A stretch of DNA of 64,000 nt from a bacterium (GCA_040390065.1 JAZJZE010000009.1:32001-96000); one strand, 5' to 3'. Positions 16,711 to 63,601 are shown, counted from the first letter of the stretch. Made by a program: numbers and translations. Notes: generated by a model from the sequence alone, not told the origin.

Positions 16711-16958
16711 GGGGCCGCCGGGGGGCCTGAAAGACCGGGAAGCCACGGAAAAAATCCGGAAAGCGACCTTTGCCGTCTTCGGCGACTTCGCTGTCTTTCA
16801 GGCATGGGCGGCCTGGGGGAACCGGAGACGAGCGGAGAACAGGAACCCATTCCCGTTCTCTTCACGAGATTCCTGTTCTCCGAGGCCCCCCACACTCACC
16901 ACGCGGCCACTTCGTTCGCGGCGCCGCCGTCGGAGGACGCGGTGGCCAGTCGTTGGCC
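16711..16958 (-). repeat. Structured intergenic repeat family B, copy 1
   Basis: Core GGAGAACAGGAATC-N20-GGTTCCTGTTCTCC plus GCCTGAAAGAC/GTCTTTCAGGC stem. Confidence 0.9.
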
Positions 16959-16976
16959 AGCAGCGAAGTCGAGCGC

Positions 16977-18203
16977 CTACTCGGCCGGGACGTCGAGGCG
17001 GACCTTGCGCATCTTGGCGGCGGCCTTCTGCCAGCCCTCGACGCGCTTCGAAGTGATCTTGGTCCCGAGCACGTTGGTCTCCAGCGTGTCGAGGTAGTTG
17101 TTGACTTGGTTGGCGATGGCGTCGGGGCTGCGGCGCTTCAGTTCCGCGATGCCTTGGATGCCGGCGCGGGCTAGGGCTTCGGCGTACTGCTTGCCCACAC
17201 CGCTGATCTTCATGAGCTCCCCCATGTGCTGCCACTGTTCGACGGTCTTCTTCGGGACGCCGACGCGCTTGCCGAGGGATTCCGGCTCCTCGTAGGCGAG
17301 GCGGGCCGTCGTGAGGACGCCGGCTTGGGCGAGTTTGGCGCCGTAGATGCGGCCGATGCCTTCGATGTCCTCGACGTTGTGGATGTCGCCCGTGTAGTCG
17401 TAGTAGGCCCGCGATGCGGACCCGTTCGTGCCCGCGCGCTTGGCGAGGCGTTCCTCGAGTTCCGAGATGAAACCGCGGCCGTCGGCCTTGCGGCCGGTGC
17501 GCGGGACGGCTTCCTCGGTCGGCTCAGCCTCGGTCGCGGCACCGGTCGGCCAGTACTTCTCGCGCACGTCGGCGGGAAGACGTGCACGAACGTCCTCGGG
17601 GATGGAGGCGAGGCGCTTCTCGTCCATGACGACGACCGGCTTCTGCGAGTTGCGCAGCGGCAGTTCGGCGGCTTGGCCGTTGGGCGGCCCAGCAAGCAGG
17701 ATGCGCAGCTTGAGTTGGTTGCCCTGGTTGTCGATGGGGATGTACGTGTTCGTGTACAACGCCGACTCGACGGTGCGGGGCGTCACGAACGGGTACAGCT
17801 TGTTGCGGCGCTCGTACTTGCCGTACGCGTGGTACATCTGCGGCAGCGCCCCGAGGTTGTAGACGACCATCTCCGGGCCCTTGCCGAGGCCGTCGGGTTC
17901 GCCGAGTGTTGCCTCGAAGGCGTCGCGGGCGGCGTTCTCGGCGGCAAGACGGGCCGCTTCTTCCGCCTCGGCGCGCCGGTTGCGGCGTTCGTCGCTGGAG
18001 CGGATGAGGATGGCAAGAAGGATCAGGCAGACGAGGGCGGCAAGGACGACGCCGACCCAGAGCGCGACGGTCGGAGCGTCTTTCACCCACGGGAAGTCGG
18101 CCTGGTCGGTCGACTTGGCCCAGAGGAGGAACAAGAAGAACATGGTGACCAGGAACAGGACCACGAAGGAGACGGTGCCAAGGATCCGTTTGCCGCTGGC
18201 CAT
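16977..18203 (-). CDS. Membrane protein with C-terminal DUF4332-like helix-hairpin-helix domains
   Basis: Two N-terminal TMs; IEGIGRIYGAKL and ISGVGKQYAEAL HhH repeats. Confidence 0.75.
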   Translation of the reverse strand: MASGKRILGTVSFVVLFLVTMFFLFLLWAKSTDQADFPWVKDAPTVALWVGVVLAALVCLILLAILIRSSDERRNRRAEAEEAARLAAENAARDAFEATLGEPDGLGKGPEMVVYNLGALPQMYHAYGKYERRNKLYPFVTPRTVESALYTNTYIPIDNQGNQLKLRILLAGPPNGQAAELPLRNSQKPVVVMDEKRLASIPEDVRARLPADVREKYWPTGAATEAEPTEEAVPRTGRKADGRGFISELEERLAKRAGTNGSASRAYYDYTGDIHNVEDIEGIGRIYGAKLAQAGVLTTARLAYEEPESLGKRVGVPKKTVEQWQHMGELMKISGVGKQYAEALARAGIQGIAELKRRSPDAIANQVNNYLDTLETNVLGTKITSKRVEGWQKAAAKMRKVRLDVPAE

Positions 18204-18234
18204 CAGTTATCGGGCCTTCCAAGGGGGCGGCTCT

Positions 18235-18846
18235 TTATGGTTTTGCTGTTTGATTTCTGGAGGCCGCCAGGTAGGCCGCCAGGGCGCGGGCGGCAACCCC
18301 CCTGTGACTCAGGGCAGCTTTCACTGTTGGAGGCACCTCCGCGAAGGTCCGGCCATCGCCTTGCGAACCGGGGGGGACGAGCGGCCGGAAGACGGGGTCG
18401 AAGCCGAAACCGCCCCCGCCGGCGGCGGCGGTGGCGACAAAGCCCCGGCATGCGCCTGCAAAGTGGCGCCGGTGGAGCCCTGCCTCGTCGCGCTCCACGA
18501 GGAGGATGTCGGCGTTGAACGACGCGACGCGGTCCTTCGGGGCAATCCCGGCCATGAGGCGCAAGAGGCCGGGGACGCCGATCGTGTCGAGGGCATGACG
18601 ACTGTAGACGCCCGGAAAGCCTCGCAAGGCCGCGACGAACAGGCCCGAGTCCTCGAGGATGAATGGCGGCCGCACCCCGGACGCCAGCAGGTGGTCGGCG
18701 CCGGCCTCGGTGACCTGGTCCAGGGTGGACGCCTGTAGCTCCGGGTAACCACGAGCGTCCTGCACCACCTCGACGCCGATGGGCGCTAACAGCAAGGTCA
18801 TTTCGGCTACTTTGCCGGCATTGGTGGTGACGAAGGTGAGTCTCAC
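18235..18846 (-). CDS. rdgB: Non-canonical purine NTP pyrophosphatase (RdgB/HAM1)
   Basis: TTNAGK, EDSGL, GFPGVYS, GFGFDPVF, SHRG motifs. Confidence 0.95.
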   Translation of the reverse strand: MRLTFVTTNAGKVAEMTLLLAPIGVEVVQDARGYPELQASTLDQVTEAGADHLLASGVRPPFILEDSGLFVAALRGFPGVYSRHALDTIGVPGLLRLMAGIAPKDRVASFNADILLVERDEAGLHRRHFAGACRGFVATAAAGGGGFGFDPVFRPLVPPGSQGDGRTFAEVPPTVKAALSHRGVAARALAAYLAASRNQTAKP

Positions 18847-20519
18847 CTGTAGCGCCCCCGCGAACGGATGGCATCGAGGCGCACGATGGCGGCTGGCGCG
18901 CAGCGGGCTCGGCTGTAGGCGCCCAGGAATGCCGCAAACAGGTCGTGGCTGCGCGGCTCTGTGGCCTCCAGTGCCTCCTCGAGCAGATGCAGGTCGACGC
19001 CGCGCGGTTCGGGCTCATCGGAGAACGACCCGAGGCCGAAGTCGATGAGGACGACGCGGCTGGCGGCGCCCGCGTCGGGGACGAGGACGTTGCTCGTCGT
19101 CAGGTCGCCATGCGACAGGCCGGCATCGTGCAGGCGACCGACGGCGGTGCCGAGGGCCGCAAGCCTTGTGCAGGCCACGTCGTCGGCGTCATGTCGCAGC
19201 GTGGCTTGCAGCGACTCGCCCGCAATGGGCTCGAGGGCCATGGCCGTTTCCTTGCGGTCCACGTCGTGCACGATCGGCACGGCCACTCCGGCACGCCTTG
19301 CGGCGACGAGCAGGTGTGCCTCGTCCCTGGTGCGGGCCGCCCGGATCGCTGCGTCGAGCCGGGCATCGCGGTACGCTTTGGGCAATCGGCGTTTCTGCAG
19401 GACCGCGGCGCCGAGGAAGCGGGCGGGTTCGAGCACGGCTTCCGCCCCGCCAAACGGCCGTGGCAAGCTGGCCATTGGGGCCTCGTCGCTGCGCCATGTC
19501 ACGGCGACCTGGTCGGTGCGTTCGTACGGGGTCACGGCGCTTGTTTCGGGTGTCAGGACGTCGCCCACGGCGAGTTTCGCGGTGCCCAGCCATGCAATCA
19601 TCGCGCCGTTGTCCACCAGCACGTCGCGGGGCGGGCAGTGCATCGTCGCGCCGCGCTCGTTGCACATGAGGCGCGCCATGTCCTGCAGACGCGCGTTGCA
19701 GGCGACGCCACCCCCCAGGGCCAACTCGTTGCGCCCCGTGTGGGCCAAGGCGCGCTCGGCCGTCTCGACGAGGGCGGCGAAGGCGTGCTCCTGGAAGGCG
19801 CGGCACACCTCCGGAAGCGGCACGCCGTCCGTGACGAGTCGCGATGCGGCCGTCGCCAGGCCGGCGAAGCTGACGTCCATGCCCTTGACCGTGTACGGCA
19901 GGTCGCGCCAGGAGTCGCGCGCCGCAGTGGCCGCAAGGCGCTCGACCTCGGGGCCGCCGGGGAACGGGATGCCCTGCTCGCGGGCGAACTTGTCGAGGGC
20001 GTTGCCCAGGCCGACGTCGAGCGTCTCACCGAAGACGCGGTATCGCCCGCGCACGTAGGCGAGGACTTGCGTGTTGGCGCCGGACACGTAGAGGAGCATC
20101 GGGTCCTTCGCGTCGGTGAGGCCGCGCGCGATCTCCAAGTGCGCGACACAGTGGTTGACGCCAATCAGCGGCTTGCCGGCGGCGATGGAGAGGGAGCGCG
20201 CCATCGTCGCCGCGACGCGCAGGCATGGCCCGAGACCCGGGCCTTGGCTGAAGGCGACAGCCTCCAAGTCCTTCGGGGAAAGGCCCGCCGCGTCGAGGGC
20301 TTTCTCCAGGAGCGCCGGCCCGACCTCGCCGTGGTGGTGGGCGGCTTCGCGCGGGTGGATGCCCATGGCCGCCTCGTCCGGGCCCGGCGGCGGCGGGCGC
20401 ACCATCGACCTCTCGTTGGCGAGGATGCGGCACTTGCCGGAGCTGTCGCGCTCCACGATGCCGACGCCCAACGTGTGGGCCGTGCCTTCGATGCCGAGGA
20501 CTGCCAACGCCGCGGCCAC
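18843..20519 (-). CDS. kae1: Bifunctional Kae1/Bud32 (t6A synthase and protein kinase)
   Basis: GIEGTAHT, NHCVAH, SGANTQ, DNGAMIA, followed by kinase motifs HGDLTTSN and IDFGL. Confidence 0.95.
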   Translation of the reverse strand: MAAALAVLGIEGTAHTLGVGIVERDSSGKCRILANERSMVRPPPPGPDEAAMGIHPREAAHHHGEVGPALLEKALDAAGLSPKDLEAVAFSQGPGLGPCLRVAATMARSLSIAAGKPLIGVNHCVAHLEIARGLTDAKDPMLLYVSGANTQVLAYVRGRYRVFGETLDVGLGNALDKFAREQGIPFPGGPEVERLAATAARDSWRDLPYTVKGMDVSFAGLATAASRLVTDGVPLPEVCRAFQEHAFAALVETAERALAHTGRNELALGGGVACNARLQDMARLMCNERGATMHCPPRDVLVDNGAMIAWLGTAKLAVGDVLTPETSAVTPYERTDQVAVTWRSDEAPMASLPRPFGGAEAVLEPARFLGAAVLQKRRLPKAYRDARLDAAIRAARTRDEAHLLVAARRAGVAVPIVHDVDRKETAMALEPIAGESLQATLRHDADDVACTRLAALGTAVGRLHDAGLSHGDLTTSNVLVPDAGAASRVVLIDFGLGSFSDEPEPRGVDLHLLEEALEATEPRSHDLFAAFLGAYSRARCAPAAIVRLDAIRSRGRYR

Positions 20520-28277: not shown

Positions 28278-28280
28278 CAC

Positions 28281-28595
28281 CGCGGGGCGAGTGTGGGGGG
28301 CCTTGGAGAACAGGAATCTCGTGGAGAAAACAGGAATGGGTTCCTGTTCTCCGGGCGTCTCCGGTTCTCCCACGCCGCCTTTGCCTGGAAAACCAGGAAA
28401 AGCGTCTTCCCTTCTTCGGCGTTTTTCTGGACGTTCACGCCCCCGGCGGCCCCGCGCGCGGCTTCGCCTCGCGCGCTTGCCACGCCCTCGCACGCCCGCG
28501 CTGCGCGGCGGGCTGCTCGCCCCGACCGGGGGCGCTCCGCTTCGCGTCGTTCGATTCCCTCCTGGATGTCGGCACCGCCGGAGGCCGGGGAATCG
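28281..28595 (+). repeat. Structured intergenic repeat family B, copy 2
   Basis: Core hairpin plus CCCCGGCGGCCCC and GCTCGCCCCGACCGGGGGC modules. Confidence 0.9.
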
Positions 28596-28690
28596 GCGGT
28601 TGGCCTGGGTCGGGCAGGTTTCCGCCCTTGCCGGGCATGCGAGATGCCGTGCGCGAAACGCTCAAGGGGATGCCGCCGCTCGGCGCCCCC

Positions 28691-39146: not shown

Positions 39147-39209
39147 GCAACTGGCAGCGCACGCGGCGGGGAAAAGCGTTTCCGGAAAACCTGCGGGTCA
39201 AGGGCCAAC

Positions 39210-39739
39210 GAGGGATTCGTCAAACCTCCGACGGCGCTGCCGACCTCGACGACGGGTCAACAGATGCAACCGATGCAACCGATGACCACGACGCTCCATC
39301 GGACAGCAGGAATCCTGCGTGCCAACACCCGCCGACTGATCCGTCATCCTCCGGCGGCTGCGACGTCAAGGACGGAAGCGACGGACGCGGCGCGCAGGGC
39401 CCCCCGGTCGGGGCGAGCGAATGCGCCGCGAGGCGCGCAGAGCGAGGGCTTGGCGAGCCGAGCGCAGCGATGGCTGGGGCCGCCGGGGGGCCTGAAAGAC
39501 AGGGAAGCGAACGAAAAAAACCGGAAAGCGACCTTTCCAGCCTTCGGCGACTTCGCTGCTTTTCAGGCAAAGGCGGCCTCGGAGAACCGGAAACGACGGA
39601 AGAACAGGAACCCATTCCCGTCCTCCCCACTAGATTCCTGTTCTCCAAGGCCCCCCACACCCCGCCACGCGGCCACCTCGTTGCCCGCGCCGCCGTCGGA
39701 GGTCGGCGTGGCCGGTCGTTGGCTCTGCTTCGCGCGACC
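39210..39739 (-). repeat. Structured intergenic repeat family B, copy 3 (longest, with internal insert)
   Basis: All modules present; 39664-39739 is the exact reverse complement of 52911-52986. Confidence 0.9.
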
Positions 39740-42852: not shown

Positions 42853-45261
42853 CTAGCTCCGGCGGCGCAACAGCACGACCATGAGGGCCACGATGAGTGC
42901 CGCCGCGGCTGCCGCGCCGAGGATGACGCTCAGCCACGCGCCCTTCGAGGGTGCCGGCGATGCCAGCCCTGCGGGGACTGCGTCCGGAGTGGCCGCGGAG
43001 GGGCCGCTGCCGGCCGCCAGGAAGCGGCTCTCCTGGCAGACGTCGCCGACGCCGTCGCGGTCGAGGTCGTCCTGCTGCAGGTTGGATGCGTACGGGCAGT
43101 TGTCCACGCCGTTTGCCACGGTGTCGCCGTCGATGTCGGGGTCGCACGCGTCACCGAGGCCGTTGCCGTCCAGGTCTGCCTGCGTCGGGTTGGCGTTGTC
43201 GGGGCAGTCGTCGGCCGCGTTGACGATGGCGTCATTGTCGCGGTCGGCGTCGCACACGTCGCCCTTGCCGTCGAGGTCCAGGTCCGCCTGGCCCGGGTCG
43301 GCGATGAAGACGCAGTCATCGACGGCGTTGGGCCAACCGTCGCCGTCGACGTCCGAGCCGGCCACCGCCGGGTCGACGCCGTCGTGTGGCGGGCGCGGCG
43401 CCTGGCCGTTGTCTTGCGAAATGGTGGGCTTCAGGCACGGCGGGTTCTGCACGACGCCAATGATTTGCGTCATGGTACCCGTGTTGCCGTTGGCATCCAT
43501 GACGGTCAGGGTGACGATGTAGTCGCCCGCGGCCTGGTACTCGTGCATGGGGCTCTGGTCGGTGCTGGTGCCGCCATCGCCGAAGCTCCAGTCCCACGCG
43601 ATCACGGCCCCGCCGTTCGGGAGGGGGGCCGTCGTGTCGCTGAAGAAGACCGGGGGCAGGCCGCAGCCGCTTTGGATCCACTTCCAGCTCGCCGGCGGGG
43701 GCGGCGGGGGCGGGATGACGAGCGGGTTGCCTCCGCCGGTGTCGTACATGTAGGCGGTGTCCGCGCCCAGCCCAGTCAACTGCGCGACGATCGGGAAGTC
43801 GCCTTGCACGAGGAACGTGCCGCCGCTGCTGGCCGTGCTGGCCGGGAGCTTGGGCGTCATGCAGGAGTACCCTGACGAGCCGATGGGCCGGCCGGTCGGG
43901 GGCAGGGACACGATGGACAGCACACCCGTCGGGTCTGCGGAGTACAGCGTGAGGGCGGTCGTCGACGCGTAGCCGATGTAGAGGTGGTTCTCCCATGACG
44001 GGTCGGCGTAGAACCAGTGCGCCTTCACGGAGAGGTCGAGTGGCGACAACTCCATGATGGCCGGGTCGCCGTACCAACCGATTGCCTGGTACGCGCTCGT
44101 CGGGTTCTGCGTCGGGCTGACGGTTTGCGAAACCCTGCTGTGGGCAAGGTACTGGACGACATGGATGGGGGCGTCGGAGGTGATGGCCGTGTCCTTCACG
44201 AAGCGGAATTGGCGCCAGGTCGTGCTCGTGACCGAGGCCGTGGTGATTCCAGAGGTGTCGGGGACGGCGAACTGAATGTTGGCGGTGCCGGAGACGGCGC
44301 GGATGCGCAGCCAGTCGACGCCGGGGCCGTCGTCGGTGAATGCCGGGCTGTCTCCGGTTCCGCTCATGTTGGATGCGGCGGCGCACATGACGTAGACTTG
44401 GCCGGCGAGACTGTCGGGCAGCATCTCCTCGTTGATCGTGTCGCAGGAATCATCCTCGAGGTCGACGCACACTGAACCGGCGAACACCGCGCAAGCGGTG
44501 GAGCAGGTGATGCGGGAGCCGGTGAGGTCGGCGAGCGCACCGCAGCCGAGGGGGTCGGGGCTCGAGAAGGGCCAGACCGTGCACTTGACGTCGCCTTCCT
44601 TGCCCATGACGTGCAGCGCGTCGCCGCGGTTGGCCAGCGTATATGTGTAGACGGTGCCCGGCGTCATGACGGGCACGGCGGTCGGAGCAGGCGGGAGGGC
44701 CACGCTGGCCGACGTCGGCGCGCTCACCGTCACGGTGACGGTCGTCGAGGCCTTGATGGCAATGACGGTAAAGAACGCCGGCTGGGGATTGAGGTACTGG
44801 ATGTTGTTGGCGGCCGTCGCGACGCTGTAGACCTTCCCGAGCTTGCTTTCGGGCAGCAACTTGGTGGCGTCCGTCGTGGCGCTCGTGCCCTGCACTGCCG
44901 TGATCTGCATGACTTCCCAGTTGTTGTCAGGGGTCGTCGCCGTGTACGTGGCGGCGTTGCTGATCTGCGTCGTCAAGTAGAGTTCGCCGTACGCATACTG
45001 TCCCGTCATGGCGGGATTGACGATGGTGCCCGCGACGATTGCAGTACCGGCCTTTTCGAAGGTGACCTGCTGCGTGCTAAGCGATCCGGCGTTGGTGGCC
45101 GAGATGACGGTCGTGGGCTGGATGGGCCCGGCGGTCGTCGTCGTGGGCAGACCCACGGACCAGTAGATTGCGGCGTCCGAGTCATGGGGCAGTGCCACCA
45201 TCAGAAGGGCGCCAGCGCCGACGAGGGCGAGTCCGAACAAGAGGCCAGAGCGGTGCATCAT
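42853..45261 (-). CDS. Surface protein with IgGFc-binding-like, PKD and TSP type-3 domains (paralog 1)
   Basis: LLPE..LG, DLTGSRI..AVFAG, WSFGDG PKD motif, DxDxDGxxDxC repeats, TM-RRR tail. Confidence 0.85.
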   Translation of the reverse strand: MMHRSGLLFGLALVGAGALLMVALPHDSDAAIYWSVGLPTTTTAGPIQPTTVISATNAGSLSTQQVTFEKAGTAIVAGTIVNPAMTGQYAYGELYLTTQISNAATYTATTPDNNWEVMQITAVQGTSATTDATKLLPESKLGKVYSVATAANNIQYLNPQPAFFTVIAIKASTTVTVTVSAPTSASVALPPAPTAVPVMTPGTVYTYTLANRGDALHVMGKEGDVKCTVWPFSSPDPLGCGALADLTGSRITCSTACAVFAGSVCVDLEDDSCDTINEEMLPDSLAGQVYVMCAAASNMSGTGDSPAFTDDGPGVDWLRIRAVSGTANIQFAVPDTSGITTASVTSTTWRQFRFVKDTAITSDAPIHVVQYLAHSRVSQTVSPTQNPTSAYQAIGWYGDPAIMELSPLDLSVKAHWFYADPSWENHLYIGYASTTALTLYSADPTGVLSIVSLPPTGRPIGSSGYSCMTPKLPASTASSGGTFLVQGDFPIVAQLTGLGADTAYMYDTGGGNPLVIPPPPPPPASWKWIQSGCGLPPVFFSDTTAPLPNGGAVIAWDWSFGDGGTSTDQSPMHEYQAAGDYIVTLTVMDANGNTGTMTQIIGVVQNPPCLKPTISQDNGQAPRPPHDGVDPAVAGSDVDGDGWPNAVDDCVFIADPGQADLDLDGKGDVCDADRDNDAIVNAADDCPDNANPTQADLDGNGLGDACDPDIDGDTVANGVDNCPYASNLQQDDLDRDGVGDVCQESRFLAAGSGPSAATPDAVPAGLASPAPSKGAWLSVILGAAAAAALIVALMVVLLRRRS

Positions 45262-45329: not shown

Positions 45330-47771
45330 TTACTGGCGACGGCGGGCGACGACGACCACCAGGAGGGCCAGGAGGGCCGCGGCGCCGACGATTCCAGCAA
45401 GGACGCCAAGCCAGCCGGAAGCGCCGGCGACCGGGGCCGACAGCGCTGTGTCCGTCTTGTCGAGGGGGCGCGAGGCGTCGGGCTGAGCGGCATCCGGCAT
45501 CGACATCGCGTCGCAAGCGTCGCCGACCTGGTTGCCGTCGCGGTCATCTTGGTTGGCGTTGGCCACGCGTGCACAGTTGTCCACGGCGTTCAGGACCTTG
45601 TCGCCATCCACGTCGGAGTCGCAGGCATCGCCGAGGCCGTTGCCGTCGAGGTCGCTCTGCTCGGCGTTCGGCGTCGTCGGACAGTTGTCTGCCGCGTTGA
45701 GCACGCCGTCATTGTCAGCATCCTTGTCGCAGGAATCGCCCATCTCGTCCAGGTCCGTGTCGTTCTGCGCCGAGTTGGCGACGAAGACACAGTTGTCCAG
45801 GGCATTGCGGATGCCATCGCCGTCGGCATCGTCGCCGGCGATCGCGTCATCGACGCCGTCATGCGGCGGGCGCTGAGCGTGGCCGTTGTCCTCGGAGATG
45901 GTGGGTTGGATGCAGACCTCGCCCTGGGTGGCGGCGACTTGCTGTGTTGCCGTGTCCGTGAAGCCGTTGGCGTCGGTCGCGGTCTCCGTGACGGTGTAGT
46001 CGCCGGCCGCTCCGTAGGTGTGCACAGGGTTCTGGTCCGTGCTCGAACCGCCATCGCCGAAGGTCCAGGAGTACATCGTGTACGGCGGGGTGCCGCCCGA
46101 CGTCGAGTCGGTGAACTGGATGGGGTGGACGCCGCAGCCGCTGTTGGCGGGGGTCCACTTGAAGTCCACGACGAAGGCCGGCGGCGGCAGGGCGGGCGAT
46201 CCGCCGCTGTCGTACCAGTAGCCGGACACCGCCGCAAGGCCCAGCAGTTGAACGGACGCGGGCCCGCTGGTCAAGACGTGGTGCTGGCCGCCCGTGGTGC
46301 TCGTGTCGACCGGGGTCGTGCAGCCGAAGCCTGTGCTGCCAATCACCCGCGTCATCGAGCTGGGCACGGCGGCGCCGTTGTCGAGGATGGACGTGCCAAG
46401 AGGGGCGCCGATGTAGATGTGGTTCTCGTAGCCGGGGAAGGCGTACATCCAGTGGTCCTGGAGGGCGTGCTCCATGGGCGTCACGGCGACGTCCGCGGGG
46501 GCGCCCCACGTGAAGAACGTGTACTGTGCGCTGGCGACGGGGTTGGCGCCCGCGGCGAGCGTGTCGACGTTGACGTCGAGGTAGTCCATGACCAGGATTG
46601 GGGCCGAGGACGTGACGACGGTGTCCGCGTCGAGGTAGAACTGCGACCAGGCGGTGGACGTGACGGTTGCGCTGATGATGGACGGCGCCGCGCCGAAGCT
46701 GGGGCGCACCGGAGACGAGAAGAACACCGTCGCGGTGGCCCCCGTTGCCTGGATGCGCAGGAAGTCCATCTGGCTGGTCGGGCCACTCATGTTGCCGGCG
46801 CAGATGACGTACGTGAAGCCGGCGGCGCTGTCGGGCAGCATCTGCTCGTTGATGATGTTGCAGTTGCCGCCGTCGCCGTTGTTCCAGCAGCCGGTGCCGG
46901 CGAAGACCGCGACGGCGTGGCTCGCCGTGATGCGCGAACCCGTCAAGTCGTAGGTGAAGCAGGGGGCGCCGCTGCCACCCAGGATGAACCATGGCACGAA
47001 GGCCGGGACGCAGTCGGGGTTGCCAAGGTTGCCGGATTCGACGTGCAGCGCCTGGCCGCGGTTGAGGGTGAAGACGTGCGTGGTGCTGGCAATCATGGCG
47101 GGGATCTGGTCCGGGGCCGCGCAAGGGCCGCCCGCGGTGGGGCATCCCGCGCTGGCTGCGGTGTCCGCACTAGGGGTCACGGTGACCTGCGTGTTGTCCT
47201 TGGTGGCGATGACGGTGAAGTAGTTCGGGTTGGGCGGGTAGTAGACGCCGCCGGTCGACTCGTCGTTGGCGGCCGTGAAGACCCAGTAGGTCGTGCCGAG
47301 CTGCGAGCGCTCCAGGGCGTGGGACGCATCGGCGCCGCCGCCATTTGCTCCGGGGGCAAGGCCGCCGGCCGCTGCGGTCAACTGGTGGACCTCGGACGGC
47401 TGCACGGTCTGGACGAAGTAGACGCCCGTGTTGCTGATCTGGCTGCCCTGAAGATAGTCGTTGAACTGCAGGGTGCCGACGGCGCCAGGGCTCACGGGAA
47501 ACGTGGAGACGGCCGTGGTCGCGCCCGCCGTGACCTTGTTGAGCGTGACGGTGTCAAGGGCGGTCCCGACGTTGGTGACGGCAAGCGAGGTACTGACGCT
47601 GACGGGCGGGCCCGGGGTGCAGACCAGGCTGCACAGGCTTCCGCCCGTGTCCGGCAGGCCGACGACCCAGTACTCGTTTGCGTCGGCGTGGTGCGGCATG
47701 GCGACCAGCAAGGCCGCGATGCCCAATCCAAACGTCAGCAATCCAGCAACGCGCAAGCTCCCGCACTCCAT
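45330..47771 (-). CDS. Surface protein with IgGFc-binding-like, PKD and TSP3 domains (paralog 2)
   Basis: Same architecture and PTISEDNG...RPPHDGVD linker. Confidence 0.85.
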
Positions 47772-47930: not shown

Positions 47931-50291
47931 CTAGTTCCGTGCCCGCCGGACGACGACGAGCATGACCAAGGCCAGGACGAGCACGGCAAGACCGGCGGCG
48001 GCCACGACGGCCATCCAGCCCGCCTGGGCACCATGCGGGGCGGAGAGCGAGGCGGGCGTGGCATCGAGCGGCCTGGAGCCTTGGAGCGCGGCGGCGGCAC
48101 CGACCGTCCGGTCGTCGCACGCGTCGCCCTGCTGGTCGCCGTCCGTGTCGACTTGCTCGGCGTTTGGCACCATGACGCAGTTGTCCGCGGCGTTCAGGAC
48201 CTTGTCCCCGTCGATGTCGAGGTCGCAAGCGTCGCCCATGCCGTTGCCGTCCTGGTCGGTCTGGTCCGCATTCGGCGCGGTCGGGCAGTTATCTGCCGCG
48301 TTGAGGATGCCGTCGTTGTCCGCGTCCTTGTCGCAGGCATCGCCGATGTGGTCGAGGTCGGCGTCGTCCTGGGCGGCGTTGGCTACGAAGACGCAGTCGT
48401 CGACCGCGTTGAGGATGCCGTCGCCGTCGGCGTCTGCCCCTGCGATGGCGGGATCGACGCCGTCATGCGGCGGCCGCGGCGCGTGGCCGTTGTCCTCCGA
48501 GATGGTCGGGCCCATGCAGACGCCGCCGTCGACGACGGAGACAATCTGCGTGGACGAGGAGGGAAGGTCGTTGTCGTCCGTGACGGTCAGGGTGACGGCA
48601 TAGTCGCCGGGGGCGCCGTACTGGTGCGTCGGGTTCTGGTCCGTACTGGTCCCGCCGTCGCCGAAGTTCCAGAACCAAGACGTGATGGGCACGTCGCCAT
48701 CGGTGGACGTGTCCTTGAACGAGACGGGCTGCATGCCGCACCCGCTTCCCGGCGTGCCCTTGAACGACGCCGTCGGCCCGACGGGCGGCGGGATCACGCT
48801 CGGCGGCGAGCCGATGTCGTACAGGTATGCGCCGTCCAGGCCCTCTCCTGTCACTTGCGCCGTGAGGCGGCCACCCGTCATGTCCTCGAGATGGTATGTG
48901 CCGCCGGTCGCTGGGTCCAGAAGCGCCGTGGTGCAGGAGAAGTTCGTGGCGCCGATGGGCCGGGCTCCCGTCATGAGGGCGCCGTTGAGGTGCAGGACGG
49001 CGATGTTGGAGTGTGCGATGTTGATGTAATTGTAGAACGTCTCGGCCGTGGAGAAGTCGTGGACCGGCGTGCCCTTGTCGATGGGGCGGATCTCCGTCTC
49101 GGCCGGGTCGCCGTAGCCCTGCTGCGGGTAGTAGTAGCCGATGGTGTTGGCCGGGATCTTGATGCCGGCCCCCGGGATGTTCATCGTCGCCCAGGCCATG
49201 AACTGCAGGATGTGGATGGGCTGGTCCGACGTCACGACCGTGTCGGCCTTCATGTAGAACGTCGTCCACGCCGTCGACGAGACGGTGGCCGTCGTCGTGG
49301 CGGCGCTGTACGCCGGTCGGAACGGCGAATAGTCCGTTGGTCCAGGCTGCGTCGCCACGGGCACCGCGAAGTTGATGGTCGCCGTTCCCGCGACGGAGCG
49401 AATCATGATCATGTCGAGTTGGCCGTAGTTGCTGGCCACTGAACTGCAAAGGGCAAACGTGTTGCCCATCGAGTTGTCCGGCAGTTGCTGGGTGAAGATG
49501 ATGTCACCGCGCTGGTCCTCGATGAGGGCTCCATTGTTGCCGGCGAAGACCGCCACACCGGTCGTGGCCACGATGCGCGTGCCGGCGAAGTTGCAGTTTG
49601 CGCCACCGAGGTGGAACAGGTTCTGCGCAGCCGCCGATTCGACGTGCAGGACTTCGCCGCGGTTGACCGTGAACGTTGTGGGGCTGACCATCGTCGGCAC
49701 CTGGCCGGGCACGACGCTCGGGGAGTTGGGACAGACGGGGTAGACCGTCACTTGCGTGTTCATCTTGATGGACACGACGTCGAAGAAACTCATGTCCTGC
49801 GCGTAGCCGTTGATGGACCCGCCGACGGGGTCCTTCCATGCGCCGATCGTGTACGTCGTTCCGAGCTCCTGCTCGGGCAGCAGGCGCGTGCCGTCCATGG
49901 ACTTGGTGGACGAGTCGGCGGGGTCGATCTGCCAGACGTTGTACTCGTTGCCGCCTGGAGTCGTGATCCAGTACACGGACTGGCTGCTGATTTGGCTGCC
50001 CTGCAGTTGGTCGTTGTAGTTGAAAATCCCGGTCGTGCCGGTCGGGATGACCAGCGCCTGCGTCGGCGTCGGCGAAAGGATGCTGCCGAAGGTCACGAGC
50101 CCCGTGGGGCCCGCGTTCGTGACCAACACGTTGGTGGTCGCCTGCGGGGGACCGATGAGGGCGCTCGTCGACGGGACGCCAATCGTCCAGTACGTGTTGG
50201 CCGACGCGTGGTGGGACAGCGCCAGAAGCGCGAGCCCGGCGCCGGCGACGGCGATGACCGCAAAAAGTGCATGATTGCCCTTGACCACCAT
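47931..50291 (-). CDS. Surface protein with IgGFc-binding-like, PKD and TSP3 domains (paralog 3)
   Basis: Same architecture and linker. Confidence 0.85.
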
Positions 50292-50959: not shown

Positions 50960-51381
50960 TCCTGCGACGGCGGCGGAACACGGATTGCGACGAATCCGTC
51001 ATGACACGCGCGTAGGCCCCCGGTCGGGGCGAGCTGGTATTGCGAGCGCCTCGGCGCGAGCATGCCGGGGGTCGCCGGGGCCGGCAGGCCCCCCGGCGGG
51101 GGGAAACGGGCGGGGGGCCGCAGCCCTCCGCCGCGATGTCGCGAGGCGAAGCCGAGGCAGGACATCGCAAATGATCGACCTGTTTTCAGGTCGCGCGAGG
51201 GCCGCCGGGGGGCCTGAAAGACCACGAAGCCACCGAAAAACCCGGAAAGCGATGTTTCCAGTCTTCGGCAACTTCGTAGTATTTCAGGCAAGGGCAGCCT
51301 GGGAGAACAGGAGCCGAACGGAGAACAGGAACCCATTCCCGTTCTCTCCACTGGATTCCTGTTCTCCCAGGCCTCCCACAC
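50960..51381 (-). repeat. Structured intergenic repeat family B, copy 4
   Basis: Core hairpin, GCCTGAAA/TTTCAGGC module and GCTCGCCCCGACCGGGGGC, with an extra hairpin-rich insert. Confidence 0.88.
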
Positions 51382-51430
51382 TGGATCGAGCCGTTGCCGC
51401 CCGGACCACCGCCACCGATGCGAGAGGAGT

Positions 51431-52795: not shown

Positions 52796-52910
52796 GAAGG
52801 ACACCCCGAGAAGGGTGTGCGGCGATGTTGGGTCCAGCACGTAAAGGAATCGATTGAGCCGAGGAGACGGAACAAATCCGTGTTCCCGCCCGGTCTGCGG
52901 ATGCGGCACC

Positions 52911-53270
52911 GGTCGCGCGAAGCAGAGCCAACGACCGGCCACGCCGACCTCCGACGGCGGCGCGGGCAACGAGGTGGCCGCGTGGCTGGGCGTGGGGGGC
53001 TTGGGAGAACCGCAATCAAGTGGAGAGAAGGGGAATGGGTTGCGGTTCTCCGTAGGTCTCCGGTTCTGCCAGGCCGCCCCCGCCTGACCATGCGGTTACA
53101 ACCGTCGTGCCAGGGCCCCCGGCGGCCCCAGCCATCGCTTCGCTCGGCTTGCCACGCCCTCGCTCTGCGCGCTTCGCGACGCATTCGCTCGCCCCGACCG
53201 GGGGCGCTCCGCTTCGCCATCTTGGATTCCCACATGGAACTCGCCGGCGTCGGAGGCAGACGAATCCCTC
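52911..53270 (+). repeat. Structured intergenic repeat family B, copy 5
   Basis: Core with compensatory changes: GGAGAACCGCAATC / GGTTGCGGTTCTCC. Confidence 0.9.
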
Positions 53271-53411
53271 ACCCAGCGTGGACAAGCAGGTTGGCACGCA
53301 TGCGGGCCCAGCCGTCAACCCCTTGAGCGGGTATTCCGCGGCGTATCGGTTGCATCTGTTGACCGGTCGGCTTCGTGACGCCGCGGAACCGGCCTGCCCT
53401 TCCCCTTCCGT

Positions 53412-53861: not shown

Positions 53862-54017
53862 GGGTACGCTTCAAGCCTGAACATGGTTTAGAAAGCTGCC
53901 GCAACGATGCAACGGCGTCCAACGGTCTTGGCCTCCTGGATTCCTCCTGGGCCACGTGCAACCCGCCAGCCGTTTACCGGCAAGCCGCAAGTGACGGTGC
54001 AAGCCAAGACCGATGCG

Positions 54018-54165
54018 CGGCCACGTCAACCTCCGCCGGCGGCGCCGGCACCGAGGTGGCCGGGTGGCTGCGCGTGGGAGGCCTGTGAGAACAGGAATCT
54101 CGTGGACGGAAGGGGAATGGATTCCTGTTCTCCTATGGTCTCCGGTTCTCCCAGGCCGCCCACAC
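54018..54165 (+). repeat. Structured intergenic repeat family B, copy 6 (short)
   Basis: CGGCCAC..GTGGCCG module plus core hairpin only. Confidence 0.88.
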
Positions 54166-54184
54166 TTCGCACGGCGGCGCTGGA

Positions 54185-59012: not shown

Positions 59013-60275
59013 GTGCCGAAGGCAACGCCCCGCGCCGCCCCGATTGCCGATGCCGAGGAGGGCGCCCGGCGCATCGCTTGGGCGGGCCGCCACATGGAAC
59101 TGCTGGCCGCCATCCGCACGCGCCTCGAGGACGAACAGCCCTTCGACGGCCTGCGCATCGGTTTGGCGTTGCACGTCGAAGCCAAGACCGCGAACCTCGC
59201 TCTCGCGCTGCAGGCGGGCGGGGCCGACGTGCGGCTTGCCGGCTGCAACCCGGAGTCGACGGATGACCGCGTCGTGGCGGCGCTCAACGCACAGGGGCTT
59301 CCGACGCGCGCCCGCAAGGGCCAGTCGTCGCAGGAGTACTACGCGGCACTCGACTGGGTGCTCGATGGCAAGCCGCACCTCGTCGTCGACGACGGCGGCG
59401 ACCTCGCGTTCCTCGCCCACGGCAAGCGCCGCGACGTGCTGCGCGGCATCCGCGGCGGGGCGGAAGAGACCACGACGGGCGTTCTGCGGCTGCGCGCCAT
59501 GGCCGCCGACGGCAAACTCAAGTTCCCCGTGCTCGACGTCAACGGCGCACAGATGAAGCACCTCTTCGACAACCGCTACGGCACGGGGCAATCCACGTTC
59601 GACGGCATCTTCCACGCCACGAACCTCCTCATCGCGGGCAAGAACGTCGTCGTCGCAGGGTACGGTTGGTGCGGCCGCGGCATCGCGGCGCGAGCCAAGG
59701 GGCTGGGAGCCACGGTGACGGTGACCGAGGTCGACCCGGTGAAGGCCATCGAGGCACGCCTCGACGGGCACCAGGTCGCCACGATGGAGCAGGCTTGCAA
59801 GACCGCGGACTTCATCGTCACGGCCACCGGCTGCAATGCCGTCATCGATGCCCGGCACGTCCCGCATCTCAAGGACGGCGTGGTGCTCGCCAACGCCGGC
59901 CACTTCGACAACGAGGTCGACAAGCCCAGCCTCAAGAAAGCCTCCCGCAGCGTCCAGACGGTCCGCGAGGGCGTGACGGAGTACCTGTTGCGCGACGGCC
60001 GCACCATCCACCTCCTCGCCGACGGCCGCCTCGTCAACCTCGCATCAGGGCAAGGCCACCCCGTCGAGATCATGGACATGAGTTTCAGCCTGCAGGCCCT
60101 CGCACTCGAACACCTCGCGAAGAACGCGGCCACGATGAAACCGGGCGTGCACGCCCTGCCGACGGACCTCGACCAGGAAGTGGCCCGCCTCAAACTGGCG
60201 ACGCTGGGCATGTCCATCGACACGCTCACCAAAGGCCAGCGCGCCTACCTCTCGGGCTGGGAGCATGGAACATGA
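59013..60275 (+). CDS. ahcY: Adenosylhomocysteinase
   Basis: LHVEAKT, EETTTG, FDNRYGTGQS, GYGWCG, GRLVNL; start uncertain. Confidence 0.96.
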   Translation: MPKATPRAAPIADAEEGARRIAWAGRHMELLAAIRTRLEDEQPFDGLRIGLALHVEAKTANLALALQAGGADVRLAGCNPESTDDRVVAALNAQGLPTRARKGQSSQEYYAALDWVLDGKPHLVVDDGGDLAFLAHGKRRDVLRGIRGGAEETTTGVLRLRAMAADGKLKFPVLDVNGAQMKHLFDNRYGTGQSTFDGIFHATNLLIAGKNVVVAGYGWCGRGIAARAKGLGATVTVTEVDPVKAIEARLDGHQVATMEQACKTADFIVTATGCNAVIDARHVPHLKDGVVLANAGHFDNEVDKPSLKKASRSVQTVREGVTEYLLRDGRTIHLLADGRLVNLASGQGHPVEIMDMSFSLQALALEHLAKNAATMKPGVHALPTDLDQEVARLKLATLGMSIDTLTKGQRAYLSGWEHGT

Positions 60276-61228
60276 GCGTCGCTGCCACGAACGGCCAAGG
60301 CGCCGCACCCTTCGTCGCCATCCTCGGCCACAGCAACCTCGACATCCACTTGCAAGTCAAGGACTTGCCCAAGCCCGGCCAGAGCAGCGCCGTCCTGCAC
60401 CGGCGCACGGCGTGGGGTGGCACGGCTGCCAACATCGCGCACCAAGCCGCCGGCCTTGGCGTGCCCGCACGACTGTGGTCACTCGTCGGCGACGATTTCC
60501 CCCCGGCATGGCGCCAGGCCCTGACCCTTGCCGGCGTCGACACCGCTGGGCTGCGCGAAGTCCCGGGGCGGGCAACCCCGACCTGCTTCGTGGTCACGGA
60601 CCTCCTGGACCGCCAGAGCTACCTCATGGACGAGGGGGCGATGGCGGACATGGCGCAGAACGCACCGGACGCAGCCGTCCTGGACGGCATCGCCGCCGGC
60701 GGCTGGCTGCACATGGCGACAGGCGACCCGCTCGTGTACGCCGTCGCAGCCGACGCGGCACGTGAACGCGGCCTCCAGGTGGCCCTCGACCCTGGCCAGG
60801 AGATGCGTTGGCGGTACGACCGCCGCGCCTTCGAGGGTTTGCTGAACCTGAGCCACGCCTTCTTCGTGAACGAGGAGGAGTTGCGCGTCGCCGCCGACTT
60901 CCTGCGCTACGGCGCGCCGGAACAGTTTCTGGACCACGTCGACACCGTCGTCGTGACGCGGGGCGCAAGCGGAGCGAGCCTGTACCGGCGCAAGGCCAAG
61001 ACGCTGCACTTGCCCGCATTCCCGACGAAGATCGTGGACCCGACAGGGGCCGGTGACGCCGTCCGCGCCGGATGGTACGCAGCCCTGCATGCGGGCAAGC
61101 CGATGGAGACGGCTTTGCGGTGGGGCCTTGCGGCGGCGAGCCTCGTCGTCCGCCATGTCGGGGGCCAGACCCACGTCGTGACGCGCGCAGAACTCGACGC
61201 CGTGCTGGCGACCACCTCGGCGGCGTAG
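60272..61228 (+). CDS. PfkB family sugar/nucleoside kinase
   Basis: GGTAAN, N..E, DPTGAGD motifs; ATGA-coupled to ahcY. Confidence 0.92.
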   Translation: MSVAATNGQGAAPFVAILGHSNLDIHLQVKDLPKPGQSSAVLHRRTAWGGTAANIAHQAAGLGVPARLWSLVGDDFPPAWRQALTLAGVDTAGLREVPGRATPTCFVVTDLLDRQSYLMDEGAMADMAQNAPDAAVLDGIAAGGWLHMATGDPLVYAVAADAARERGLQVALDPGQEMRWRYDRRAFEGLLNLSHAFFVNEEELRVAADFLRYGAPEQFLDHVDTVVVTRGASGASLYRRKAKTLHLPAFPTKIVDPTGAGDAVRAGWYAALHAGKPMETALRWGLAAASLVVRHVGGQTHVVTRAELDAVLATTSAA

Positions 61229-61229
61229 C

Positions 61230-62240
61230 CTACAGGTGGGCCACCACGCCGAGGCCGCCGCGGAAGGCGCCGAAGACGGTGGGGTCCTGCAGCAGCGGTA
61301 CGACCTCGTAGCCCACCACGGGCGGGCCGGCAGTCGGCTGTGGCATCAAGATCGCCCGCAAAGCCGCGCCGACGCGCGTCGGTTCGGCAAACCGCGTCCC
61401 GGCGTACCCTTGCCGGACCTCACGGATCTCGAAGCCCACGACGTGTTGGCCCGGCGCATCCGCCGGCGCGCCCCACTGCACGAGCGTGCTACCGCCAGCG
61501 GCGGGCGTGGCCGACGCCCACGGGACCCGCGGGCCCATCTCGACCCAGTGCTCCTTGATCTCATGTTGGATGGCGGGGTCGCCGGCAATCGGGGGCAAAG
61601 GCACGAGCACGTCCTGGGGCGGGGGGGCCGCCTCCTGCGTCAACCAGCCAGAGGCCGGTCGCGACGGGGCGGCGGGGCCGGCCGGTACAGGCTCGGGCGG
61701 CCACGGTTCCGGCGCGGGCTCCTCCCCTGCGGCGGACGGCTCGGCAGGGGCGTCCGTCCACGTGGTCTCGGCGTCCCGCCACCCGGACCGGGCCTTGCGG
61801 CGCTGCGTGGCGATGATCCCCGTGGTTGCGGCCCCCAGGCCCACGACGGCGAGCGTCGCGAACACGAGGGGCAGCAGGCCGCCGCCGGAGTCGCCGCCCG
61901 ACGCGCCGCCCAAGTCGCCGCCGCCCGAGGATTGGACGGCGAAGCTCGACGTCTTGACGAGCGTGCCGTCGCAGTAGAGACGCATCGTATAGGTCCCGGT
62001 CCTGGTGAGGGTGAAGGAATGCGACCCTGCGGTTCCCTGTCCGGTCCAGTGCAGGGTCTCGGGGCCGGAGACTGCCGCCTCGAAGGCCATCGGGTCGCCG
62101 ACGAAGACGTCGAAGTTGGCCTCGACGTCGACGGGCGCCTGCCACGGCTGCGGGTCGGTCGGCACCGCGATGTAGGGCGTGCACGACGCCTGCGCAGCGG
62201 GAACCGCAACCAGGAGCAGGGCAGCGACCACCAGGCGCAC
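61230..62240 (-). CDS. Hypothetical secreted/single-pass membrane protein
   Basis: Signal peptide, Ig-like region, TM, Pro-rich cytoplasmic tail. Confidence 0.7.
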   Translation of the reverse strand: MRLVVAALLLVAVPAAQASCTPYIAVPTDPQPWQAPVDVEANFDVFVGDPMAFEAAVSGPETLHWTGQGTAGSHSFTLTRTGTYTMRLYCDGTLVKTSSFAVQSSGGGDLGGASGGDSGGGLLPLVFATLAVVGLGAATTGIIATQRRKARSGWRDAETTWTDAPAEPSAAGEEPAPEPWPPEPVPAGPAAPSRPASGWLTQEAAPPPQDVLVPLPPIAGDPAIQHEIKEHWVEMGPRVPWASATPAAGGSTLVQWGAPADAPGQHVVGFEIREVRQGYAGTRFAEPTRVGAALRAILMPQPTAGPPVVGYEVVPLLQDPTVFGAFRGGLGVVAHL

Positions 62241-62325
62241 GCGGGGCAAGCGGCCAAACCGGGCATAAGGGCTACGGCGGGCCGCCGTCGTCGCCATTTT
62301 GTAGCAATCCCTCCTGCCCGGCCCC

Positions 62326-63237
62326 GTGCCCGCCGCCGCCTCCATCCCTGAGGCCATCACGACGACCAGTCTGCCATTCAAGGTGTTCCGGCGCGGCAAG
62401 GTGCGCGACGTGTACGACCTCGGCGACAAGCTGCTCATGGTCGCGACGGACCGCATCTCCGCCTTCGACGTCGTGCTCGACCCCGGCATCCCGCAGAAGG
62501 GCGCCATCCTGACGCAATTGTCGAATTTCTGGTTCAAGCTGCTGCGCGACGAGGTCCCGAACCACCTCATCGCCACGGACGTCGCCAAGTACCCGAAGGA
62601 TTTGGCACCGCACGCGGCCTTGCTGCGCGGCCGCAGCGTCCTCGTCGAGAAGCTGAAGCCCATCCCCATCGAGTGCGTGGTGCGCGGCCACATCTCGGGC
62701 TCGGGGTGGAAGGAGTACCAGAAGAAGGGCAGCATCTGCGGCATCCCCTTGCCGGCGCAACTGCAGGAATCGCAGCGCCTGCCCGAGACCATCTTCACGC
62801 CGAGCACCAAGGCCGAAGTCGGGCACGACGAGAACATCTCCTTCGCGGACGCGGCCCACCTCGTCGGCGACGAGACCGCCGAGTACCTGCGGGACACGAG
62901 CATCCGCATCTATGAGCACGCGCGGCAGTACGCGGCGGCGCGCGGCATCATCATCGCCGACACCAAGTTCGAGTTCGGCACGCGCGACGACGGAACCATT
63001 GTCCTCATGGACGAGATCCTGACCCCGGACAGTTCGCGGTTCTGGCCGGCGGACCAGTTCGCTCCCGGCAAGGGGCAGCCGTCGTACGACAAGCAGTTCC
63101 TGCGCGACTGGCTGGAGACGCAGCCATGGGACAAGACGCCGCCCGGGCCCAAGCTGCCGCCGACCGTCGTGGCGGGGACGCAGAAGCGCTACCTCGAGGC
63201 GTACACCAAGATCACCGGCACGGCGTTCAGCCTTTAG
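62326..63237 (+). CDS. purC: SAICAR synthase
   Basis: GKVRDVY, TDRISAFD, ADTKFEFG, TPDSSRFW motifs. Confidence 0.97.
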   Translation: MPAAASIPEAITTTSLPFKVFRRGKVRDVYDLGDKLLMVATDRISAFDVVLDPGIPQKGAILTQLSNFWFKLLRDEVPNHLIATDVAKYPKDLAPHAALLRGRSVLVEKLKPIPIECVVRGHISGSGWKEYQKKGSICGIPLPAQLQESQRLPETIFTPSTKAEVGHDENISFADAAHLVGDETAEYLRDTSIRIYEHARQYAAARGIIIADTKFEFGTRDDGTIVLMDEILTPDSSRFWPADQFAPGKGQPSYDKQFLRDWLETQPWDKTPPGPKLPPTVVAGTQKRYLEAYTKITGTAFSL

Positions 63238-63254
63238 ACCCGGGAGAATCCGGC

Positions 63255-63601
63255 GACCGGCAATTGCGGCCTCCACGACGGCAATTTGGGCGAGGTGGCC
63301 GCGGGGCGCGTTTCGGCACCGACGGAACGGTCGATTCGACGGCTCGCAGCCACTGTACGTTCTGTGGAGTTCGCTGGAGCGGCTGTGTGTGGGAAGCCTT
63401 GGAAAACAGGAATCAAAGGGAGAGAAGGGGAATGGGTTCCTGTTCTCCGGCCGGCTCCTGTTCTCTCAGGCCGCCCTTTCGAAGCGGCGCCAGGGGACAA
63501 CGCTGCCGCCTTGCTGGTTCGCCCGTCGGCGTCATCGGCGTTAGCCCATTTCGCGGCCCGGGTTGGCGCCATTCCTCCATGCCATCGCCGCCGTCGGAGG
63601 T
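63255..63601 (+). repeat. Structured intergenic repeat family B, copy 7 (diverged)
   Basis: Core at 63385-63476, GAGGTGGCCGCG and CGCCGCCGTCGGAGG modules. Confidence 0.85.

Follow-up and report, generated by a model that had tools for sequence, protein, structure and literature searches.

The 64,000-nt stretch of DNA analysed here (hereafter the window) corresponds to positions 32001-96000 of contig C9 in genome G000, so that a window coordinate equals the C9 coordinate minus 32000. Its intergenic DNA carries seven copies of a palindromic repeat, and the question raised by this locus is to which kind of element such repeats belong and by which means they became dispersed. The G000 assembly is composed of 50 contigs totalling 2.68 Mb, with a GC content of 67% and an estimated completeness of 89%; its archaeal origin is indicated by the window coding for a Kae1-Bud32 fusion and a deoxyhypusine synthase. 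The comparisons presented below suggest that the repeats are likely non-autonomous, gene-less members of a family of cassettes that are bordered by terminal inverted repeats and that encode, in their full form, a GxxExxY / PDDEXK_3 nuclease. A first-pass annotation of the window was borne out as to the seven copies, the spacer lengths and the individual base-pair changes, but not as to spacer content, covariation, folding strand, density and the starts of two copies.

Gene boundaries correspond throughout to heuristic gene calls. A covariance model, R1, was built from an alignment (A1) of 27 core copies of G000 and was used to place the core copies in the window, the extents of the surrounding mosaics being derived from BLAST coverage. 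Relatives comprised 40 genomes, of which 12 are congeners and 28 fall outside the genus.

The repeat core and gene-bearing cassettes of similar design

The core is a palindrome of ca. 97 nt made of a terminus, GTGTGGGnGGCCTGG, and two iterated arms of the GAGAAC-GGAAT type, followed by the inverse of both. More precisely, its left half reads GTGTGGGnGGCCTGG, arm A1 (GAGAACAGGAATC), five variable nt and arm A2 (GAGAGAAGGGGAATG), and its right half the inverse arm GGTTCCTGTTCTCC, six variable nt, the inverse arm TCTCCGGTTCTCC and CAGGCCGCCC(ACAC). A1 and A2 are direct iterations of a 9-11 nt motif (GAGAACAGGAAT and GAGAAGGGGAAT, respectively), and both recur inverted on the other side. As a small, non-coding unit ending in terminal inverted repeats (GTGTGGGAGGCCTGGGA ... 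TCCCAGGCCGCCCACAC), the core has the build of a miniature inverted-repeat transposable element (MITE). The constancy of spacer lengths noted earlier was confirmed for all seven copies of the window; over the genome, columns 7-93 are free of indels in 23 of the 27 copies aligned. The 20-nt spacer previously taken for free sequence in fact holds a third conserved arm, GAGAGAAGGGGAATG, with a column entropy of 0.64 bit against 1.07-1.09 bit in the two true spacers; overall, termini and arms range from 0.33 to 0.64 bit and the flanks from 1.03 to 1.09 bit.

A gene-bearing design of the same kind was found around genes of the PDDEXK_3 family, a large family occurring in bacteria, archaea and viruses. 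The full cassette consists of a terminus, (GTGT)GGGnGGCCTGG, of two to four direct iterations of a 9-11 nt motif, of the gene, and then of the inverse iterations and the inverse terminus. The gene product is a PD-(D/E)XK nuclease of ca. 120-150 amino acids that belongs to the GxxExxY / PDDEXK_3 family, GxxExxY being the product name given to these genes by NCBIfam. They are present in all 13 genomes of the genus. When inverted flanking arrays were counted at a score of at least 14, with shifted windows in the same loci as controls, 29 of the 39 PDDEXK_3 genes examined in the genus were found to be flanked, compared with one of 109 control windows. In a sample of the phylum, the gene occurred in 15 of 121 genomes, and the same design was detected for 20 of the 24 genes outside the genus that had enough flank (controls: 1/83). 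Taken together, 49 of 63 genes in the genus and phylum samples lie between inverted arrays versus 2 of 192 control windows.

Four cassettes display the GGGnGGCCTGG terminus on both sides, namely those of G000:C5, G004:C9:50333, G012:C21:47431 and G008:C10:99426. In the last one, both ends have the sequence GGGGGGCCTGGGAGAACA..., in which the terminus is followed by the initial 7 nt of arm A1, with 17/18 and 19/22 nt identical. In G000 itself, a frameshifted PDDEXK_3 gene (C5:19085-19418) sits between GGGCGGCCTGGAAAAACAGTGAAC and its inverse, and two gene-less copies (C11:27534 and C11:32439) match both ends of this cassette, over 28/30 and 38/45 nt. A ranking of the 39 cassettes according to how closely both flanks resemble the core ends placed these four at the top (scores of 30, 25, 24.5 and 22), the other 35 scoring 13-19. 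Their three intact proteins fall in a single clade of five rows in a tree of 36 (support 97/86), and the C5 gene fragments have their best matches in G004:C9 (63%) and G008:C10 (60%). Common arm motifs were also found in other close protein pairs (G009:C8 with G001:C50; G008:C36 with G012:C33). Shared termini, gene-bearing relatives and a correspondence between protein clade and terminus are shown by these comparisons. The cassette match is one of superfamily level, the arms agreeing over their first 7 nt only.

G000 contains two intact PDDEXK_3 genes (C17:28754 and C3:83972), the frameshifted gene on C5 and a fragment on C1. The C5 gene, split over two frames, is the sole gene of the matching clade in this 89% complete assembly. 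The C17 gene (28754-29089) is flanked by nonamer arrays, CAACAGATG three times on one side and CATCTGTTG three times on the other, which match a nonamer module of the mosaics described below; judged by these nonamers, the arms around the C17 gene have a gene-less relative in the CATCGGTTG/CATCTGTTG module. The intact C3 gene was considered as the cognate of the window repeat, its right flank having 13 nt (GAACAGGAATCCA) in common with A1, but is a less likely candidate: its own inverted repeat is weak (10.5), it ranks 10th of 39 and its protein belongs to another clade.

The first-pass annotation had seen no transposase. This holds for G000 as far as Y1_Tnp (PF01797) and the TnpB zinc ribbon (PF07282) are concerned, since neither gave a match in the 89% complete assembly, while 6 of 14 control genomes matched PF01797 in this search for transposases associated with repetitive extragenic palindromic (REP) elements (RAYT). 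The 23S_rRNA_IVP and DUF559 families likewise had no match in G000. A partner gene, the PDDEXK_3 nuclease, is nevertheless present outside the window.

A nuclease activity of GxxExxY proteins is plausible from modelling. The predicted structure of the G008:C10 protein (predicted local distance difference test score, pLDDT, 89) is a minimal PD-(D/E)XK fold, whose nearest solved chains, at modest TM-scores, are Cas4 SSO0001, lambda-type exonucleases and Hjc. Across an alignment of 34 proteins, residues E81 and K83 are invariant, and D71 is conserved in 90% or more of the sequences. Searches of PDB sequences with a single protein and with a 34-row profile gave no credible match.

Two further features of these loci were recorded. 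A motif GGCCAAC(N4-6)G(T/G)CCGA recurs in many cassettes (loci L061-L087 and L117-L124), where it lies to the right of the left arm and immediately precedes the start of the nuclease gene. It might act as promoter, operator or second recognition site, and a similar sequence, GCCAACGACCGGCCAC, opens the upstream mosaic module of the window family. Besides, three highly diverged PDDEXK_3-like sequences with long branches (G000:C1:389148-389276, G004:C35:7742-8050 and G008:C43:7137-7454) have no inverted flanks and are followed by the same conserved gene; they may represent a domesticated or decaying ortholog.

Distribution in relatives and at orthologous sites

BLAST searches with the core gave no match in any of the 40 relatives. 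The R1 model detected diverged copies in 4 of the 12 congeners (18 in G010, 6 in G008, and one each in G009 and G012) and none in the 28 genomes outside the genus. The terminus (GTGTGGGnGGCCTGGGA...TCCCAGGCCnCCCACAC) is retained in these copies, but the inner arms differ: G010 has GGAAACGAGGAA, G008 a CACAGAA type, and both G009 and G012 have GGGATT nonamers. G000, too, contains sister subfamilies that combine this terminus with different arms, either GGGATT nonamers or GGAAAAACAGTGAACC. Within one element all arms change together, including both direct iterations on each side. A fold does not require direct iterations to change jointly; the arms may be viewed as resembling repeated binding sites for a single protein. 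A metagenome stretch (L095) with a weak match to the model (23 bits) looks like coding DNA and was set aside.

In the orthologous spacer between GDH and AsnC, the family of copy 5 was found in G000 only; it is absent from five congeners, and other species have other hairpin families there. When the GDH-AsnC-DHS neighbourhood was compared in 10 congeners in search of an empty site, synteny was kept, but the spacers were unalignable and filled by other hairpin families; no clean empty site was obtained because the orthologous spacers are too diverged. Contigs assembled from two DNA runs, one of which may stem from the source sample, are broken at the repeats, where their summed depth is higher, and none of these contigs provided a joint that cleanly removes a copy. 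In the GDH-AsnC spacer of G011 (C17; L132), one hairpin occurs exactly within the loop of another, with outer arms GGAACAAGACGTGCACGGAATTCACGGAACC and inner arms GAAACAGGAATTACTGG, a nesting which suggests that these elements may target one another or hairpin loops.

Proposed origin of the gene-less copies

Under the cassette reading, loss of the gene would have joined the ends of a cassette into a palindrome of ca. 97 nt in which terminus, A1, A2, inverse A2, inverse A1 and terminus follow one another. As a single strand, such joined ends would form one long nested hairpin, and the joined-end element would then have multiplied in the genome. The cognate nuclease would recognise the iterated arm motifs and the terminus, and would copy or move both full and gene-less elements, a role likened here to that of RAYT on REPINs (REP doublets forming hairpins) or of a transposase on MITEs. 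Insertions would fall between genes, frequently next to or within other elements of this class, and would in this way build up the mosaics. Whatever effects the copies now have, for instance through recombination with one another or as hairpins in read-through transcripts, would be by-products.

The nested hairpin and the random orientation of the copies (see below), as well as the differing hairpin families found in the same spacer, all fit this reading. The nuclease is inferred to bind the arms and to move the elements, and it is probably this enzyme that moved the gene-less repeats. Since the only G000 gene of the matching clade is frameshifted, the 29 copies present in the genome appear to be orphaned now, and are probably immobile and decaying. 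A broader proposal is put forward tentatively, as a possibility that we would not yet favour over its negation: GxxExxY / PDDEXK_3 proteins might be the mobilising enzymes of undescribed compact selfish elements, each recognising its own arms, and the window family a swarm orphaned by the frameshift in its nuclease.

Several points weigh against the cassette reading. No gene-bearing element with exact GAGAACAGGAAT arms was found in G000, where every end is paired within a gene-less core; therefore the link to the cassettes rests on the terminus, on the 7 arm nt shared with a congener and on the correspondence at clade level. A scan of metagenome contigs with the 20-mer GGCCTNGGAGAACAGGAAYC returned 28 stretches and no real copy. 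Ten of the 39 genus genes have no detectable inverted flank, among them two members of the matching clade (G002:C5 and G010:C141). No target-site duplication was seen, no direct repeat being visible at the flanks of the 29 copies, and the spread of copies by transposition is deduced from their dispersal. The arms and termini are two to three times less variable than the spacers, which fits a continuing constraint and sits uneasily with simple decay. Finally, the double compensation seen in copy 5 (see below) joins A1 to the adjacent inverse arm and not to its end-to-end partner.

Alternatively, the cassettes and gene-less copies might be mobile or duplicated with the nuclease as mere cargo, acting as a homing-type, addiction or defence function or reading the arrays as its own operators, in which case a host pathway or an unassembled enzyme would spread the repeats. 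Such a scenario is of low, though appreciable, probability. It would account for the ten genes that lack inverted flanks, for the persistence of 29 copies in spite of the frameshift in the only G000 gene of the clade, and for the three orthologous diverged genes, which occupy one conserved locus and have no arms. On the other hand, the type of terminus tracks the protein clade and close protein pairs have common arm motifs, as expected if the protein reads the arms. Moreover, no other candidate enzyme emerged, Y1_Tnp, the TnpB zinc ribbon and DUF559 all being without a match.

Copy number, position and mosaic structure

With up to three mismatches allowed, the arm motif GGAGAACAGGAATC was found 26 times in the window for 3.31 expected, a number reached by none of 100 shuffles; together with the covariance-model matches obtained for all seven, this confirms the seven copies first reported. 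Also as reported, all seven lie between gene calls, and this extends to the 29 copies of the genome, three of which are overlapped solely by 5' extensions of stop-to-stop frames. The total of 29 is made of 28 copies scoring at least 76 bits and a degenerate one (C2:47153), with a mean pairwise identity of 80%. The genome-wide density is thus one copy per 92 kb (29 in 2.68 Mb) and not one per ca. 9 kb as extrapolated earlier, the window being a local cluster: 16 of the 29 copies are carried by contig C9 (binomial P = 1.5e-4), and the window has seven for 0.69 expected, but was picked for exactly that abundance. For copies 4 and 7, the starts initially given (50960 and 63255) had to be moved to 51027 and 63380, where repeated DNA sets in. 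The copies are randomly oriented with respect to adjacent genes, with 11 copies in the same and 10 in the opposite direction when the neighbours are in tandem, the others being located between convergent (5) or divergent (3) genes.

The core is embedded in a mosaic that may include an upstream hairpin module of ca. 70 nt and up to ca. 350 nt of downstream modules. The latter correspond to a GCCTGAAAGAC...GTCTTTCAGGC hairpin, a GGCCCCCCGG...CCGGGGGGCC unit and the CATCGGTTG/CATCTGTTG nonamer unit, and every module is also present alone elsewhere in G000. The coordinates of the cores and nonamer modules in the window are given in Table 1.

Table 1 Position of repeat cores and associated nonamer modules in the window
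Feature	Window position	Strand	Evidence and remarks
Core copy 1 (terminus, A1, A2, their inverse, terminus)	16801..16897	-	R1 C9:48801-48897, 108.2 bits; mosaic 16711-16957
Core copy 2	28289..28385	+	R1 C9:60289-60385, 99.1 bits; mosaic 28280-28608; DNA fold z -3.85
Core copy 3, longest mosaic (39190-39738)	39566..39662	-	R1 C9:71566-71662, 102.1 bits; fold z -5.62
Parts of mosaic 3			Upstream hairpin module, core, GCCTGAAAGAC hairpin module, GGCCCCCCGG-ended module, others
CATCGGTTG/CATCTGTTG nonamer module, end of mosaic 3	39247..39288	-	ca. 22 genome copies
Core copy 4	51287..51383	-	R1 C9:83287-83383, 112.5 bits; mosaic 51027-51382; fold z -7.04, nested long hairpin
Core copy 5, variant arms AACCGCAATC / GGTTGCGGTT	52988..53084	+	R1 C9:84988-85084, 103.6 bits; mosaic 52905-53290
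Short CATCTGTTG nonamer module, downstream of mosaic 5	53345..53369	+	BLAST C9:85345-85369, 96% over 25 nt
Core copy 6, complete right terminus CCCAGGCCGCCCACAC	54070..54166	+	R1 C9:86070-86166, 102.3 bits; mosaic 54005-54164; fold z -3.94
Core copy 7, without flanking modules	63385..63481	+	R1 C9:95385-95481, 97.6 bits; repeated DNA 63380-63478; fold z -0.84

A module of ca. 90 nt, located on the minus strand at 39401-39492 and at 20-30 other places in the genome, starts with GGCCCCCCGGCGGCCCC and ends with CCGGGGGGCC; it is a repeat with palindromic ends in its own right, and the GxxExxY cassette at G004:C14 is followed by a stretch resembling it. Comparison of the other mosaic modules with the cassette loci yielded a single match of 16 nt (L086; E = 0.02) that was taken as chance, and tied no module to a cassette.

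Outside the window, two mosaics of 355 bp composed of a core and downstream modules (G000:C9:265800-266154 and 270739-271093) are 99% identical and inverted relative to each other. They bracket 4.6 kb containing two pieces of a family-B DNA-polymerase-like gene with small unrelated open reading frames in between, a situation that looks like a recent repeat-mediated duplication or inversion.

Folding and covariation

The stems had been described as covarying. Across the 27 aligned copies, pairing is indistinguishable from a chance reassortment of partners. A first pair model combined an outer stem with pairing of A1 to the neighbouring inverse arm and a pseudoknot formed by A2; it gave 85.1% of paired cells versus 84.6% after shuffling, a level attained by 80 of 500 shuffles, and a covariation score of 0.087 versus 0.075 (14 of 500 as high). 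A nested model with end-to-end pairs was not above shuffled partners either. Minimum-energy folding of the DNA favours the nested fold. As single-stranded DNA, five of the six copies folded at full length adopt a nested long hairpin in which the termini pair with each other and A1 pairs with the last arm (z of -3.2 to -7.0), while copy 7 folds poorly. The individual changes reported for copies 5 and 6 are real: copy 5 has two doubly compensated pairs, C-G at columns 24/58 and C-G at columns 26/56, and the change from T.G to T-A in copy 6 is found as U-A at pair 29/53. These are isolated cases, and pair 24/58 is simply broken in five copies. As to the single folding strand previously deduced from G.U pairs, there are 55 G.U against 29 A.C, yet 17 of the G.U come from a single inherited pair (29/53), and the argument leans on that one column.

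Searches of the whole window against Rfam gave no match at the gathering score; below threshold, only generic models of eukaryotic miRNA hairpins were obtained, the best being mir-671 with 35.6 bits for a gathering score of 65. The absence of an Rfam match, the random orientation and the weak covariation therefore provide no support for a dedicated RNA gene, and the iterated arms do not favour the multicopy structured non-coding RNA proposed earlier. It is accordingly improbable that the repeats form a structured RNA family or cis-acting RNA hairpins (terminators or mRNA stabilisers, like transcribed REPs) selected for the fold of the GTGGG strand. Such an origin would agree with the strong fold of five full-length copies, with the better RNA fold of the forward strand in 23 of 27 copies, with the two compensated pairs of copy 5 and with arms that are better conserved than the spacers. 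It is opposed by the lack of gathering-level Rfam matches, by the 11 to 10 distribution of orientations next to tandem genes, by pairing no better than with shuffled partners and by a strand asymmetry due mostly to one inherited column; the fold, furthermore, leaves unexplained both the direct iteration of the arms and a terminus in common with gene-bearing cassettes.

Comparison with known systems

Bacterial REP and REPIN elements with their RAYT gene (REPtrons; Bertels and Rainey 2011), and bacterial interspersed mosaic elements (BIMEs), offer a close analogy. As in these systems, the G000 repeats are short, palindromic, intergenic, restricted to a species or genus and assembled in mosaics with other modules; the repeats also border both sides of a gene that is usually of low copy number, and many gene-less hairpins are scattered through the genome. 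They differ in that the partner is a PD-(D/E)XK (GxxExxY) nuclease and not an HUH Y1 transposase, in the unit of ca. 97 nt with a terminus of 15-17 nt and iterated 9-11 nt motifs, in the archaeal host and in the low copy number (29). REPs have been described as imperfect palindromes of 20-40 nt whose conserved head is GTAG or CGTC (Di Nocera et al. 2013, PMC3733652). The first-pass label of REP/BIME-like is thus adequate for the appearance of the repeats, which are palindromic, intergenic, species-restricted and mosaic, and for a superfamily whose single-gene partner is flanked by repeats; the repeats nevertheless do not belong to that family, the genome having no Y1/RAYT match and the terminus being GTGTGGG and not GTAG/CGTC.

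Pairs of MITEs and insertion sequences (IS) likewise provide for ends of a longer element that are joined after gene loss, for terminal inverted repeats with subterminal motifs, and for small, non-coding, dispersed copies. Here, by contrast, the sole gene of full-length elements is not from any known transposase family, the element boundaries merge with other modules, and no duplication of a target site was seen. That the repeats are classical MITEs of an IS with a conventional transposase, the IS being missing from a 50-contig, 89%-complete assembly because multi-copy insertion sequences break assemblies, is improbable: terminal inverted repeats, subterminal iterated motifs, small size, dispersed intergenic copies, a second, textbook MITE family of 275 bp in G000 and unitig-level contigs that break at repeats would be in line with it, but only PDDEXK_3 genes were found between these termini, in four genomes, self-comparison of the assembly revealed no repeated segment above 500 bp bearing these ends, and the flanks gave no hint of target duplication.

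In haloarchaea, palindrome-associated transposable elements (PATEs) are non-autonomous derivatives of IS200/IS605-type elements. They resemble the G000 repeats in being archaeal, palindrome-rich and gene-less; unlike what is expected for PATEs, G000 gave no match to Y1 TnpA or the TnpB zinc ribbon, and the full form of the sister subfamily carries a PDDEXK_3 gene. Integron attC sites, with conserved ends around a variable palindromic middle, would be a further possible analogy.

The function of PDDEXK_3 is listed as 'Unknown' in a survey of the superfamily (PMC3424549). In the literature searched, papers naming GxxExxY, PDDEXK_3, TIGR04256 or PF13366 contain nothing on repeats, and titles and abstracts dealing with palindromic repeats, MITEs, REPINs and archaea mention no such cassettes.

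A structured repeat that could not be assigned is now paired concretely with one small protein family, in a way that can be tested. Gene-less copies occupy intergenic DNA and accumulate in corresponding spacers of different species. If GxxExxY proteins are indeed mobilising enzymes, as in the broader proposal, the system would be a nuclease-driven analogue of RAYT-REPIN, in which cassettes spread together with gene-less hairpin satellites. Should the nuclease be the engine, this would represent a new enzymatic route to REPIN- or MITE-like colonisation and would provide a function for a large orphan family; should it not be, the hairpin mosaics would nonetheless account for much variable intergenic DNA, and for the assembly breaks, in these genomes.

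Other repeats in the window

The textbook MITE family mentioned above is distinct from the hairpin repeats and is represented in the window by two copies of ca. 275 bp with sharp boundaries (4515-4796 and 5475-5760). Its inverted ends are ca. 30 nt long (TAGAGGYCRTTKCATAACTGCCAGG...), CTAG/TA occurs at both edges, and ca. 16 copies were counted in the genome, several of them at contig ends. Finally, the repeats at 43034-43596, 45507-46068 and 48104-48741 are coding, common to three adjacent large genes and unrelated to the hairpins; the third of these genes encodes IgGFc-binding, PKD and TSP type-3 domains.

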